Virus record (IMG/VR): IMGVR_UViG_2606217104_000013
Length of the DNA: 10,212 nucleotides
Strand: one strand, 5' to 3'
From: a virus
Lineage: Duplodnaviria; Heunggongvirae; Uroviricota; Caudoviricetes
Shown here: in pieces, positions 2,857 through 7,926 of the stretch
Position numbering within the stretch: position 1 is the first letter of the stretch
Layout of the letters: the number at the start of each line of letters is the position of its first letter
Translations under genes and position numbers: made by a program
The notes under the pieces: model-generated
The model's database searches: none
What the model was told of the DNA's origin: nothing
The model's input: only the letters and a program-made list of their open reading frames with translations

Positions 2857-3939
2857 ATGAAAAAATTAACAGTGGCAATTTCTGCTGTAGCTGCATCAGT
2901 ACTGATGGCGATGTCTGCTCAGGCAGCTGAAATTTATAATAAAGACAGTAACAAGCTGGATCTGTACGGGAAAGTTAATGCTAAGCACTACTTCTCCTCT
3001 AATGATGCAGATGATGGTGATACTACTTATGCCCGTCTTGGCTTCAAAGGTGAAACCCAAATCAACGATCAACTGACTGGTTTCGGTCAGTGGGAATATG
3101 AATTCAAAGGCAACCGCGCTGAATCTCAAGGTTCCTCCAAAGATAAAACCCGTCTTGCCTTCGCTGGCCTGAAATTCGGTGACTACGGCTCCATCGATTA
3201 TGGCCGTAACTACGGTGTAGCATACGATATTGGTGCATGGACCGACGTTCTGCCAGAATTCGGTGGCGATACCTGGACCCAAACAGATGTATTCATGACT
3301 GGTCGCACCACAGGTGTTGCAACTTATCGTAACAATGACTTCTTTGGTCTGGTTGATGGTCTGAACTTTGCTGCTCAGTATCAGGGTAAAAATGACCGTA
3401 CTGACGTAACTCAAGCTAATGGTGATGGTTTCGGTTTCTCCACTACTTATGAGTATGAAGGTTTCGGCGTAGGTGCAACCTATGCTAAATCTGACCGCAC
3501 TAATAATCAGGTTATCTACGGTAACAACAGCCTGAATGCATCTGGTCAAAATGCTGAAGTATGGGCAGCTGGTCTGAAATATGATGCGAACAACATCTAT
3601 CTGGCTACTACCTATTCTGAAACCCAAAACATGACTGTTTTTGGTAAAAACCATATTGCCAACAAAGCACAAAACTTCGAAGTAGTTGCACAATATCAGT
3701 TCGACTTCGGTCTGCGTCCGTCCGTTGCTTATCTGCAATCTAAAGGGAAAGACTTGGGTGCTTGGGGTGATCAGGACCTGGTTGAATATATTGATGTAGG
3801 TGCAACCTATTACTTCAACAAAAATATGTCCACTTTTGTTGACTACAAAATCAACCTGATTGATAAGAGCGATTTCACGAAAGCATCTGGCGTTGCTACC
3901 GATGATATCGTTGCTGTAGGTATGGTTTACCAGTTCTAA
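2857..3939 (+). CDS. nmpC: General diffusion porin, OmpC/OmpF/PhoE family (prophage-borne Lc/NmpC-type moron)
   Basis: 360 aa; signal peptide [23 protein letters not shown] then AEIYNKD; many Gly/Tyr/Asp/Asn beta-strand repeats; C-terminal VYQF aromatic beta-barrel signature. Sits antisense between Q and S as in DLP12 and PA-2. Symbol given by family and context, not by search. Confidence 0.85.
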
Positions 3940-3954
3940 TTTGATTACTAAAAG

Positions 3955-3987
3955 ATATGTTGGGGAGGCTTTGCCTCCCCAACATAT
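3955..3987 (-). terminator. Strong 15-bp GC-rich hairpin; candidate late terminator tR' on the minus strand
   Basis: atatgttggggaggc-ttt-gcctccccaacatat; on the minus strand it is followed by AUAUCUUUUAG, and it lies about 170 nt downstream of the Q stop, the expected tR' distance. Two more hairpins follow at 3988-4009 and 4013-4036. Confidence 0.35.
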
Positions 3988-5382: not shown

Positions 5383-5545
5383 GATTCCTCCTTGCTGCCA
5401 GTCGCAACCATTTTTTATCAACCAGGCTGGCGGTATATCCGAGCCGTGTTGGTATTTCGGATGGTTTTAGCTCAGGCTTACGCTTACGACGATTTGGTAC
5501 TCTGTAGATGTGTCCGTTCATGACACGAATAAGCGGTGTAGCCAT
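5375..5545 (-). CDS. ninE: NinE
   Basis: 56 aa translated by hand from the minus strand: [59 protein letters not shown] overlaps the ybcN stop (TAATG). Absent from the ORF track because it is under 60 aa. Confidence 0.8.
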   Translation of the reverse strand: MATPLIRVMNGHIYRVPNRRKRKPELKPSEIPTRLGYTASLVDKKWLRLAARRNHG

Positions 5546-6000
5546 TACGCCTCCTGCTTGTCGCGCAGCAGCTGGAACTCGCAGCTCTGCGGAATAGTCA
5601 GGTGGCAGCCAATATTCATCGCCCAGGCTTCAACCTTACACAGGAAGACATACATCTCTCCGGTATCAAGATCGGAGGTATGGCGTAACGACTGGATAGT
5701 AGTGATTTCGCCGGTTACGACATCAACCAGGTCCTTGGTTTCATAACCGAGGTATGTGTGTTTGAGAGCATCTTTTACCCATGCTGCGGTAGCGAACGAT
5801 TTCCCCCTGCGGATAAGGTATTCACTGATTTCGCTGTACCACATGTGGCTAAGTGCATTCTGGGAAAGACTGCGTCTCTCGCGCCACGGTTTAAGCACCA
5901 TGCGAAAGCACTTGCCGTCTTCCAAATAAGGCTGGAGCTGCTGACCGATAGCGGTGAAGTTACCGCGATGCAGTTTGATGCCGTCTTGTGGGAGGTTCAC
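5545..6000 (-). CDS. ybcN: YbcN-like protein (DLP12 YbcN family, occupying the NinB position)
   Basis: 151 aa; GTG start at 6000 with GGAGG 7 nt upstream; first gene of the overlapping ybcN-ninE-ybcO-rusA string. Confidence 0.8.
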
Positions 6001-6035
6001 GCTTCACCTCCGCAGAGGTCAAACGCTGGATAAAG

Positions 6036-6128
6036 AAAATCGCAGGTGCATTTCTGCATCTGTGACGGGAGAAGATAGTTTAGATTGTATGTGCGCATAA
6101 ACGTCCCCGTTTAGCGCAGAAGTCACCG
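6036..6128. repeat. Direct repeat copy 1 (~93 bp) with internal imperfect palindrome TGCGCATAAACG-TCCC-CGTTTAGCGCA
   Basis: 93 bp matching 8358-8450 at a constant offset of 2322 bp with 5 mismatches; palindrome at 6092-6118; followed by an 11-bp-stem hairpin at 6121-6151 (agtcaccggag / ctccggtgact). Confidence 0.85.
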
Positions 6129-6221
6129 GAGGAGTTCAAACTCCGGTGACTTAATTATGACAAGTTGATTATTGAAAATCAAAAGTCATTTAAACAATAA
6201 TGATACCCAGCAAGAGATTTC

Positions 6222-6623
6222 TTATTTTAACTCATAGATCAGACAGTCAACGATTTCTAAACCATTTACCATAGAATTAGAAACGCGAACTTTACCATCG
6301 TTGACTCTAGCAAATCCTTTTAACATTTTATAAACAAAAGCTGAATCCCCCTTAGCCTCAATTGCTTCTAATGGTATCGGCTTATACTTTTTTGATATGC
6401 TATTTCTATTTATCTCACTGATTTTTCTATATATTTCTGCCGGCCCACGTTCTGAGAAGTCACTGATAACTAAAATATATCTCCAAGATAGATCTGGGTA
6501 ATAAAACCACATTGCAGCATCAATAGTTAAATTCTGTAACTTGAGTTTTTTTAACAAAAATTGACCTGAGAATTCCATATCTTTTGTCAACTCTCTGCCG
6601 ATTACCAGTGTGCTTTTACCCAT
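6222..6623 (-). CDS. Hypothetical 133 aa protein, second gene of the AT-rich two-gene operon (possible partner/antitoxin-like component)
   Basis: ATG at 6623 with GGAG 8 nt upstream; start lies 22 nt inside the 3' end of the upstream gene; roughly 35% GC against about 50-55% in flanking phage genes; no family recognised. Confidence 0.6.
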   Translation of the reverse strand: MGKSTLVIGRELTKDMEFSGQFLLKKLKLQNLTIDAAMWFYYPDLSWRYILVISDFSERGPAEIYRKISEINRNSISKKYKPIPLEAIEAKGDSAFVYKMLKGFARVNDGKVRVSNSMVNGLEIVDCLIYELK

Positions 6624-7018
6624 TTCAAAACTCCAGAATTTTGGTCACCTACAGCATCAAACAATTGTTCGGCCATAGCTTTACTTATGTTATTGTCGTA
6701 TCTAAATTGCTCGCTCCAGTCTTTAACGACCGACCAGTTAATCTCCAACGAAACATCATTTTTTGCGTCAGCAATCAAAATTTGATGTAAGTTGGCAATT
6801 TTGAGAAGTTGCGACAAATCATGAGTATATGAATCATTTACGACTTTTTTGTTTGGAAACTCATGTTGTAAAAATGACTTGGCAATACAGGCCTTCAATG
6901 CACATTCAACTGCATACCCACAAAGATAATATGCACCATGAAAAAAGCCATGATCAAGCAAGCATTTGGCCTCATTAAGCCTAGTGTCAGATAATGCTTC
7001 AAGGTCGTTTTTATTCAT
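6602..7018 (-). CDS. HEPN-like domain protein (138 aa), first gene of the AT-rich two-gene operon
   Basis: ATG at 7018; helical protein with HEPN-like signatures: YAVECALKACIA (cf. QAxEKxLKAxL), THDLSQL, and a C-terminal FRYD motif. The canonical Rx4-6H arginine is replaced (VNDSYTHD), so the assignment is tentative. Confidence 0.55.
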   Translation of the reverse strand: MNKNDLEALSDTRLNEAKCLLDHGFFHGAYYLCGYAVECALKACIAKSFLQHEFPNKKVVNDSYTHDLSQLLKIANLHQILIADAKNDVSLEINWSVVKDWSEQFRYDNNISKAMAEQLFDAVGDQNSGVLKWVKAHW

Positions 7019-7021
7019 ACA

Positions 7022-7081
7022 ATTATAACTTGAATTATCCTAATTTTTATGATTATACCCTTATCAGGTATGATGTAGGAA
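7022..7081 (-). promoter_or_regulatory. Candidate sigma70 promoter(s) for the AT-rich operon
   Basis: Minus strand reads TTCCTA-18 nt-TATAAT (plus 7081-7076 and 7057-7052). A second TATAAT (plus 7027-7022) ends 3 nt before the ATG, so the mRNA may be leaderless or short-leadered; no SD precedes the ATG. Confidence 0.3.
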
Positions 7082-7317
7082 CTGAAAACAATATTGGATA
7101 TCATTTTCGGTATTTCTCTGCAAATTCCAGCCCACAGGATCTCGGTGTACAATCTGTCGCTGATCGCGCAAATTTAGGGTCAATCACTTCATTTTTTGCA
7201 TCAAACCCTCACTAACATCGAACGATTATAGTACAAGTAGTGTTCTTGACTTCTCATTAAACCGTCAGCATTCAATTAATTACAAAATACTAGCGGCATT
7301 TCTCTCCCGCAACTTTA

Positions 7318-7926
7318 TTACAGCCGTTCAGAACGTAAATGCGTCAATACTCGACTCCACTTATCATCCTGCCACGGCCGGAATTTTACATGTGCCGTTT
7401 CTCTGGCAAGGATTGCCTGTGCCTTATTGAGTATCCGGGGATATTCTTGTTCGATTGAAGTGAAGCGACCGGCTTCGCGGTGTTCTGCTACCTGAAGAAG
7501 CGGAGTGACGTTTTGGCAAGCGGTTAACATTGTGTCACTTGCCCGCCATAACCAAGCAAGTGTGCAAAGTTCGTTATCAGTGAATTGTTTTGTGATTGGG
7601 GATTGTTGAATTTCTCGATCGAGAATATCCAGCACCCAGCGGCGGAATTCTTTGGCCACAGGAGTGCGGGCGAACATGGCGATCAGATGGGCGCCACGGA
7701 GGGAGAAAATGCGAGTCTTCTTACGATAATTTCCTGAGGTCGTTGATTCGACGACCTGAGACATTCCGTCAGTAAACTCATCAATATTTTTGTTGTAGAT
7801 GTCGGTTACTGCTTTGGTGCTGGCATATTTTAATGCTGCCGCCAATTCTTTGCTGGTAAACCAGATCTGGTTGTTGTGATTTATAGGAGTGAATTTTACA
7901 TCGCGGAATGCGAGCTGAGTGACCAT
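7318..7926 (-). CDS. Bro-N domain protein (Roi / antirepressor-like)
   Basis: Bro-N-like N-terminal domain (LAFRDVKFTPINHNNQIWFTSKELAAALKY ... RIFSLRGAHLIAMFARTPVAKEFRRWVLDIL). Start is uncertain: ATG 7926 (202 aa) is preferred; in-frame ATG 8061 (247 aa) is possible. The ORF-track start at 8163 lies upstream of an intrinsic terminator and is unlikely. Confidence 0.5.
   Translation of the reverse strand: MVTQLAFRDVKFTPINHNNQIWFTSKELAAALKYASTKAVTDIYNKNIDEFTDGMSQVVESTTSGNYRKKTRIFSLRGAHLIAMFARTPVAKEFRRWVLDILDREIQQSPITKQFTDNELCTLAWLWRASDTMLTACQNVTPLLQVAEHREAGRFTSIEQEYPRILNKAQAILARETAHVKFRPWQDDKWSRVLTHLRSERL

Follow-up and report, generated by a model that had tools for sequence, protein, structure and literature searches.

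A probable RNA leader with two covarying hairpins ahead of the nin genes in DLP12/phage-82-type prophages

The nin region of lambdoid phages lies between the replication genes and Q, and what reaches Q decides between prophage silence and lysis and, in enterohaemorrhagic Escherichia coli (EHEC), the release of Shiga toxin (Stx). In the prophage sequence studied here two inverted repeats stand side by side at the entrance to this region, raising the question of whether they work as DNA or as RNA, and what they would control. The window, by which we mean the whole stretch of DNA analysed (10,212 nucleotides (nt); IMG/VR virus record IMGVR_UViG_2606217104_000013), belongs to a DLP12/phage-82-type lambdoid prophage and matches prophages of O26/O111 EHEC strains at 99.7% identity. 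The minus strand carries its early rightward operon, from the gene for replication protein P (9231-9932) through a block of cargo genes to orf33-ybcN-ninE-ybcO-rusA-ylcG-quuD, followed by the porin gene and the lysis genes. An earlier reading, made from the sequence only, had described the repeats as a candidate operator or RNA structure on the path of early rightward transcription into ybcN and the nin operon. The path is as described: it is the minus strand, the sense strand of the P-to-nin-to-Q operon, and both inverted repeats lie on it. Comparison across homologues makes it very likely that both are RNA hairpins of this strand and, with less confidence, that they belong to a leader acting in cis on the first nin gene, here ybcN (5545-6000, minus strand).

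On the transcript, hairpin 1 (HP1; 6152-6120) comes first and hairpin 2 (HP2; 6118-6092) second, the two forming adjacent stem-loops 1-3 nt apart. HP1 is built from two fully complementary arms of 12 nt each, AAGTCACCGGAG-9 nt-CTCCGGTGACTT, at 6120-6131 and 6141-6152; 10 of the 12 base pairs (bp) of its stem are conserved in homologues, and its 9-nt loop, UUUGAACUC, has a conserved UGAAC core. HP2 corresponds to the palindrome TGCGCATAAACG-TCCC-CGTTTAGCGCA and has 11 bp, a bulged U6097 and a GGGA tetraloop (6107-6104). The sequence-only reading had placed this palindrome in each of two long repeats, and the same sequence is indeed found at 6092-6118 and again at 8414-8440. It had also seen a perfect hairpin following directly on the first copy; the perfect stem and the adjacency hold, with 12-nt arms at this copy only, and the order on the transcript is the reverse, HP1 preceding HP2. 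Folding of the minus-strand transcript, which had been proposed as a check, returns a stable pair of hairpins: -34.4 kcal/mol for HP1 and HP2 together (z = -7.4, 0 of 200 shuffles as good), -20.0 kcal/mol for HP1 alone (z = -5.9) and -14.4 kcal/mol for HP2 alone (z = -4.7). Both repeats have been annotated before. The phage 82 record X92588 (GenBank, 1996), 88.5% identical across the element, labels the inverted repeat of HP1 a 'possible regulator-binding site' and marks a putative -35 and -10, a ribosome-binding site and an open reading frame (ORF), orf33, ending at orf151, which is ybcN; the phi80 record JX871397 (2012) annotates HP2 as 'IR4'. These are the same sequences, described as inverted repeats of DNA; neither record proposes an RNA structure or an orf33 start inside HP2. 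The earlier reading had passed over the 1996 annotations, as well as the ribosome-binding site and start codon within HP2 and the promoter-like sequence adjoining HP1.

The case for RNA is carried by the way in which the two stems vary. BLAST relatives of the element occur in phage 82, phi80, HK639, HK225, Enterobacter phage CobraSix and Klebsiella phage KO-TP1, directly 5' of the first nin gene, which is YbcN-type in some and NinB-type in others, and both stems differ by compensating changes already among seven phage sequences. The paired arms of HP1 read GUCACCGGAG/CUCCGGUGAC, UCUGCCAG/CUGGCAGA or GUCAUCGGAG/CUUCGAUGAC and those of HP2 UAAACG/CGUUUA or AUUUAAG/CUUAAAU, while the loops, CCUGAACAA and GGGA, are unchanged across the seven. 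For a larger homologue set, 120 viral contigs were gathered by a 22-nt anchor inside orf33, yielding 106 distinct elements. Since a MAFFT alignment (A3) misaligned the HP2 types, and was for this reason excluded from the pair counts, a covariance model of HP1+HP2 (R1) was built instead from 11 ungapped sequences, and 75 hits were aligned to it. In this alignment, whose members share descent, 97.5% of cells are standard pairs and 17 of the 20 pairs vary on both sides, in 156 cells; covariation scores 0.487, compared with 0.176 when shuffled, and none of 500 shuffles reaches the observed value. Sliding the 3' partners by 1-3 columns as a control lowers pairing to 30-51%. Covariation is found in nine of the ten pairs of HP1, and in HP2 eight of ten pairs vary on both sides, with 99.4% of cells paired. 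An independent set, with one genome per species, covers 26 bacterial species of the genera Enterobacter, Citrobacter, Trabulsiella, Escherichia, Lelliottia, Huaxiibacter, Scandinavium and Pseudescherichia; here 98.1% of cells are paired, 15 of 20 pairs vary on both sides (0/500 shuffles) and HP1 covaries in eight of its ten pairs. RNAalifold, for its part, predicts both helices unaided.

The strand can be read from the imperfect pairs. G.U wobbles fill 71 cells and A.C pairs, the wobbles of the opposite strand, fill 15, and pairing is higher when read on the sense strand (97.5%) than on the antisense strand (92.2%). The arms vary throughout (at least six versions of HP2 and many of HP1), with the centres GGGA and UGAAC conserved, and in every case the element, in sense orientation, immediately precedes the first nin gene, which is YbcN-type, NinB-type or, once, Q. 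Covarying stems, a G.U bias towards the sense strand and conserved loops together give strong support to an RNA structure, and we hold with high confidence, on comparative sequence grounds, that both repeats are hairpins of the sense-strand RNA. The RNA half of the sequence-only reading is thereby upheld, a 3' end mapped near the HP1 homologue of E. coli K-12 adding to the covariation, the strand bias and the conserved loops. Rfam 15 returned no hit at E <= 1 for 6000-6200 or 8340-8500, and a scan of the whole window found only C4, isrK and c4-a1b1, all in the cargo.

HP2 is also tied to the start of a gene. The leader ORF orf33 (5997-6098, minus strand; 33 codons; annotated in RefSeq and in phage 82), the homologue of ylcH in K-12, opens with an AUG at 6098-6096 that lies within the 3' arm of HP2, with U6097 bulged, and the GGGA tetraloop together with the closing G presents a Shine-Dalgarno (SD) sequence, GGGGA. 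The TGA stop codon of orf33 overlaps the GTG start of ybcN (GTGA), an overlap by which ybcN is predicted to be translationally coupled to it. Among 87 distinct variants the start codon (ATG; GTG in one family) falls without exception in the 3' arm of HP2 and the SD in the loop, as expected of a hairpin that sequesters an SD and/or start codon in a helix; the ORF is open, with 29-34 codons in nearly all. The 4-nt stop/start overlap (ATGA or GTGA), the mark of a short ORF coupled to its neighbour, is kept in nearly all variants whether the next gene is YbcN-type or NinB-type. Partition-function folding of the 106 homologues gives a mean pairing probability of 0.91 for the start codon and 0.00 for the GGGA loop. 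The tail of orf33 is a reading of the downstream SD (…GGEA, …KEAV, …GGGV), and the codons past a conserved 12-residue core show synonymous leucine changes (CTG, TTG, CTT, CTA), the pattern expected of a translated ORF. Over the first ~11 codons the peptides differ by family, yet all 44 sequence variants keep 38% C and 11% G. In the window this C-rich, G-poor, unstructured stretch spans codons 2-12 (6063-6095, minus strand), with a (C-G)/L of 0.30 at this first copy, above the window's 99th percentile; from its composition alone we infer a candidate Rho-loading or translation-enhancer segment.

Further into orf33 a weak terminator-like hairpin with a short U run (6031-6058, minus strand) is called by the terminator scan, weakly and with 5 bp, and appears in folds. 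Its U run is not conserved (variants such as GAUGUCUUG and GAUAUAUUG occur), and K-12 Term-seq reports no 3' end at the equivalent position. An alternative helix inside orf33, AUGCAGAAA/UUUCUGCAU, was rejected, its 3' side varying without compensation. No NCBIfam family was found for orf33, and a literature search for 'ylcH' found a single expression table, in which it is 2-fold up under microaerobic growth.

Upstream, a promoter-like sequence adjoins HP1. The promoter scan finds a -35-like TTGATT ('P-nin'; 6177-6182, minus strand), which is also the putative -35 of X92588, and an extended -10, TGtCATAAT (6154-6162, minus strand), annotated there as well, at a spacing of 17 nt; hexamers and spacer are those of a sigma-70 promoter (16-18 nt) and are conserved in homologues. 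TTGATT is present in 86 of the 106 homologues and the 17-nt spacer in 102, and the -10 reads CATAAT in 72, CATACT in 11, TATAAT in 9 and AATAAT in 9. Its register with the hairpin is conserved too, the -10 ending 15-17 nt before the UGAAC loop in 104 of 106, and lineages with unrelated upstream sequence keep a good -10 in the same register. By the 7-nt rule the start is predicted at A6147, a position occupied by a purine in the homologue sequences inspected; this is the fourth nucleotide of the 10-bp core of HP1 and the sixth of its 12-nt arm, so that a transcript from the promoter-like sequence would begin inside the 5' arm of HP1. In about 15 of 103 distinct upstream contexts (among them contigs L015, L030, L042, L057, L061, L080, L084, L102, L114, L122, L130 and L131) a canonical terminator, GGCCTCTTCGGAGGCC followed by a T run, ends ~15 nt before the -35, and this abutting arrangement suggests that P-nin restarts transcription. 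The window itself has no GGCCTCTTCGGAGGCC terminator upstream. An inverted repeat, TTGAT-N8-ATCAA (6165-6182), lies over the -35 and the spacer, with conserved arms and a variable middle, and is present in 72 of 106 homologues; this is the pattern expected of a protein-binding site, and the repeat, the only operator-like site nearby, is a candidate for one.

What happens at HP1 in a living cell is visible in part from published data. Adams et al. (2021; PMC7815308) report K-12 Term-seq 3' ends at 572349 and 572350 on the plus strand, with the flank …CUCCGGUGACUUCUG^CGCUAAACGG; the K-12 DLP12 element has HP1 and HP2 identical to those of phage 82, and these ends correspond to 6117 and 6116 of the window, 5-6 nt past the HP1 stem. 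Supplementary file 3 of that study assigns the 572349 end to a 5' untranslated region, 19 nt before ylcH and 117 nt before ybcN. To be listed there, a 3' end needs a mapped transcription start site (TSS) that is the first upstream feature or lies <=200 nt upstream, a TSS <=20 nt upstream being excluded, a rule which fits a start ~30 nt upstream and is not proof of one. Judged as an intrinsic terminator, HP1 offers a G+C-rich hairpin (12-bp stem, -20 kcal/mol) and, in its K-12 homologue, an in vivo 3' end a few nucleotides past the stem, at which termination and trimming are not separable. A U tract of at least five U in 8 nt is lacking in the tail, whether taken after the 12-bp stem (CUGCGCUA) or after the 10-bp core (UUCUGCGC). 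The remark in the sequence-only reading that there is no clear U-tract in either direction is therefore accurate: neither strand has a U run, and the terminator scan makes no call.

The position of the element is informative in another way. In lambda a canonical terminator, GGCCUGC…GCAGGCC-UUUUUAUUU, occupies the same map position, 20 nt before ninB; we take this terminator between ren and ninB to be the one that the established lambda literature names tR2. Both are G+C-rich hairpins, and each comes last on the pR transcript ahead of the first nin gene. tR2, however, carries a canonical U tract and is accompanied by neither a promoter nor a second hairpin nor a leader ORF, whereas HP1 has only UUCU past the stem and fails the terminator scan. 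The two share no sequence similarity, lambda being absent from the BLAST hits and its ren-ninB stretch giving no match to the covariance model. The element is the phage-82-type occupant of the tR2 slot.

The account that we consider most probable, though with moderate confidence only, is that of a cis-acting RNA leader at the lambda tR2 position, which would act by attenuating transcription or stabilising the mRNA, and by blocking translation. HP1 would be a promoter-proximal attenuator and/or an end-protecting hairpin: to RNA arriving from pR it would present a barrier at the tR2 position, stopping that RNA or marking its end, and on RNA from the internal promoter a truncated HP1 would cap the 5' end as a 5'-terminal stabiliser. 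HP2 would limit initiation on orf33, displaying the SD in its GGGA loop and holding the start codon base-paired. Given that the stop codon of orf33 overlaps the start of the first nin gene, opening HP2 would set the translation of that gene (ybcN or ninB) through coupling. While untranslated, the C-rich beginning of orf33 may invite Rho, from which the opening of HP2 would probably shield the leader, and polymerase modified by N would pass the transcriptional blocks. The net effect would be low expression of the nin genes and Q from read-through or from the internal promoter unless antitermination takes place or HP2 opens.

By our analysis such a leader would resemble devices already known (a start-sequestering hairpin, a coupled upstream ORF, a promoter-proximal hairpin) rather than found a new category. 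A single hairpin that holds both SD and AUG, and in the window also a bulged base, recalls the MS2 replicase operator, and a short upstream ORF with its stop over the next start and a C-rich untranslated leader recalls tnaC-tnaA and mdtU-mdtJI; these are likenesses of architecture only. The leader differs from all of these systems in that it has no known binding protein, ligand or stalling peptide, and a part for Rho is unsupported in the K-12 data. A stable hairpin at or near the predicted +1 and a short RNA end ~30 nt downstream are shared with 5' stabilisers of the ompA type and with promoter-proximal terminated leaders such as the GraL RNAs of greA (PMC2836576). In the leader, by contrast, the outer stem pairs lie upstream of a +1 that is itself only predicted.

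Several observations weigh against this account. In one Cappable-seq supplement the text lists nothing at 5723xx, and no transcription start has been seen directly. Covariation extends to the outer 3 bp of HP1, although these precede the predicted +1, which means that the hairpin mainly acts in read-through RNA or that the start site is elsewhere. Read counts at the K-12 3' end are low and, as HP1 has neither a U tract nor a terminator call, an exonuclease could have trimmed RNA back to that point, or the ybcM transcript could end there. The table of Rho termination in K-12 (PMC7815308) has no entry for ylcH or ybcN, and no trans factor or signal that opens HP2 is known. The conservation itself is somewhat flattered: the 22-nt anchor within orf33 biases the sampling and renders the anchor block 'invariant' by construction, and alignments fitted to a model lean towards the structure of that model. 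The anchor block is, for its part, also identical in the phage sequences derived from BLAST and differs by one base in K-12.

Other explanations start from the same structures. One, which goes beyond the cis-acting leader and which we regard as improbable, is an undescribed riboregulatory checkpoint, in which the UGAAC and GGGA loops would dock a phage or host RNA-binding factor (CsrA-like, or the orf33 peptide) or an RNA and so move the leader from a terminated, untranslated form to an open one or back, gating N-independent expression of the nin genes and Q. If true, the checkpoint would have a bearing on prophage stability and on spontaneous induction, and in Stx phages also on the release of toxin.

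Similarly low odds attach to a purely structural part, in which HP1 would be only a decay barrier or end stabiliser and HP2 only a fixed damper on orf33, their conservation owing something to use as a recombination linker. The element does bracket varied cargo and joins varied upstream and downstream genes, recombination between phage and prophage in the nin region has been shown experimentally (PMC3945230), and a 3' end 5-6 nt past a stable stem is what a stalled exonuclease would leave. Recombination alone, however, leaves the compensatory changes, the conserved loops and the fixed register of promoter and hairpin unexplained.

It is a good deal less probable that the element encodes a small RNA (sRNA) of ~115 nt, trans-acting or dual-function, which would comprise HP1, HP2, the C/A-rich single strand and the weak terminator in orf33 and act on host or phage RNAs. 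The layout is that of an Hfq-type sRNA, with a promoter-like sequence, 5' hairpins, a C-rich single strand and a hairpin with a U run (6058-6031), and prophage sRNAs are common (PMC4104026). That U run is the unconserved one at which K-12 shows no reported 3' end, however, and orf33 carries synonymous leucine changes and is coupled to the next gene; complements of the HP1 loop occur at chance level within the window. The EcOnc list (Tree et al. 2014) also speaks against it, none of the Sakai sites examined (Sp3, Sp10, Sp12 and Sp15) lying in the nin region, although the element itself was not placed in Sakai. Two known types of prophage RNA were set aside by location: anti-sRNAs of the AgvB/AsxR type are found downstream of pR', not in the nin region, and svsR (PMC12803456), an unrelated RNA, maps to the 3' end of cI.

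The operator half of the sequence-only reading, shared in effect with X92588, has fared worse. Palindromes bound by a dimeric phage or host regulator could repress the adjacent promoter, their symmetry is real, and HP1 would cover the predicted +1 to +30, a classic position for a repressor. An operator is nonetheless expected to conserve its half-sites, and here it is these that vary, in compensating pairs, while the spacers GGGA and UGAAC are conserved, the reverse of the operator pattern. If the palindromes acted as DNA, the 71 G.U cells would amount to G.T mismatches, a bias of 71 to 15 between strands has no meaning for a duplex, and the element is kept in phages with different early-region genes on its flanks. 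We accordingly give this option very little weight.

Least probable of all is a processive antiterminator RNA of the HK022 put type, whose hairpins would bind polymerase and carry it through the nin terminators to Q: two stem-loops 1-3 nt apart with conserved loops directly 3' of a promoter-like sequence do recall put, and the element is present in HK639, presumably itself a user of put-type antitermination, but in the HK022 early region with putL and putR (22-36 kb) the covariance model R1 finds no match (best E = 0.24), no lysogen would survive a constitutive N-independent route to Q, and the K-12 3' end right past HP1 suggests stopping rather than read-through. A nut site was also rejected, there being no boxA (CGCUCUUUA-like) and the promoter -10 standing directly upstream of HP1; the HP1 loop resembles what we take to be the lambda boxB sequence (CCUGAA.AA).

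The cis-acting leader, if it is one, is widespread. Of 5426 complete E. coli genomes, 3002 carry the sequence type of the window, each at one to four places, and the element occurs in at least eight genera of Enterobacteriaceae. A perfect leader, with a covariance-model score of 106.7 bits, also turned up in an actinobacterial assembly, that of Kocuria sabuli (L139; NZ_JAVHZE010000050.1, 1115 bp), where it is most likely contamination. Much of the raw material was already on record, the DNA repeats in GenBank since 1996 (phage 82) and 2012 (phi80) and the K-12 3' end in a supplementary table; no description as a conserved RNA structure was found, the public records seen carrying 'inverted repeat' annotations only. 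The leader gives a mutable target for asking how phages of the phage-82/DLP12 type replace lambda tR2 and why rusA and other nin genes of DLP12 are silent in K-12. Its recurrence as a cargo junction, with antirepressor modules and a pyocin-like toxin, is relevant to how phage mosaics form.

That junction is seen in the window itself, where a direct repeat of 162 nt (6021-6182 and 8343-8504, 81% identical) holds both hairpins. In copy 2, HP2 has the identical sequence (8414-8440, minus strand; covariance-model hit 8407-8478) and HP1 is degenerate (8442-8474, minus strand), with a mismatched stem of which 6 bp are left; the promoter hexamers have decayed too (TTAATT / AATTAT), and the fold total at this copy is -19.6 kcal/mol. 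No equivalent of the perfect HP1 stem is found at copy 2. Its orf33 (8280-8420, minus strand; 46 codons) is fused to unrelated sequence after about codon 26; RefSeq treats it as a pseudogene fragment. Three other contigs (L120, L035 and L072) have the same junction within orf33, and in one of them (L120) the upstream copy is still intact. Two leader copies bracket an antirepressor cassette in L035 (10600-13076) and L120 (503-3037), and in L094 (6844-11919) they bracket a tail-fibre-like gene and a Pyocin_S/Cytotoxic (colicin-like) toxin gene, the downstream copy leading straight into Q. The recurrence of the junction in other phages marks the duplication as a recurrent scar of cargo insertion and not a regulatory design with two sites; copy 2 is a decayed duplicate, left by the insertion of a C4/IsrK-antirepressor cassette inside orf33, and the leader looks like a preferred point of insertion or recombination.

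The cargo cassette of the window (6183-8342, minus strand) has a promoter of its own, three RNAs and three protein-coding genes. The promoter scan finds TTGACG-18-TATATT at 8200-8171, and Rfam places c4-a1b1 at 8177-8125 (below the gathering score), isrK at 8162-8090 (64 bits) and the C4 antisense RNA at 8065-7978 (82.5 bits), all on the minus strand and with E values for this stretch (8177-7978) from 1e-7 to 2e-15. A Bro-N/P22AR antirepressor gene (7318-7926, minus strand) lies downstream of these RNAs, and the immI-like module at 7978-8200 resembles P1 c4-icd-ant and the isrK locus of Salmonella Gifsy-1 (PMC4825925). Further along the same strand follow a gene for a HEPN-domain protein (6602-7018; Pfam E = 3e-6) and a 133-amino-acid (aa) ORF with no family hit (6222-6623), the two overlapping by 22 nt; judging from sequence, this pair may be a HEPN toxin with its partner, carried as nin-region cargo.

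Two further features lie elsewhere in the window. Between P and repeat copy 2 the plus strand carries an ORF of 115 aa (8679-9026) with no NCBIfam match, which early rightward transcription would cross in antisense. Just past the porin gene (2857-3939), a perfect 15-bp inverted repeat with a 3-nt loop, ATATGTTGGGGAGGC / GCCTCCCCAACATAT (3955-3987), is probably a bidirectional terminator between that gene and quuD; K-12 Term-seq has a 3' end, 574366 on the minus strand, at the homologous DLP12 site.

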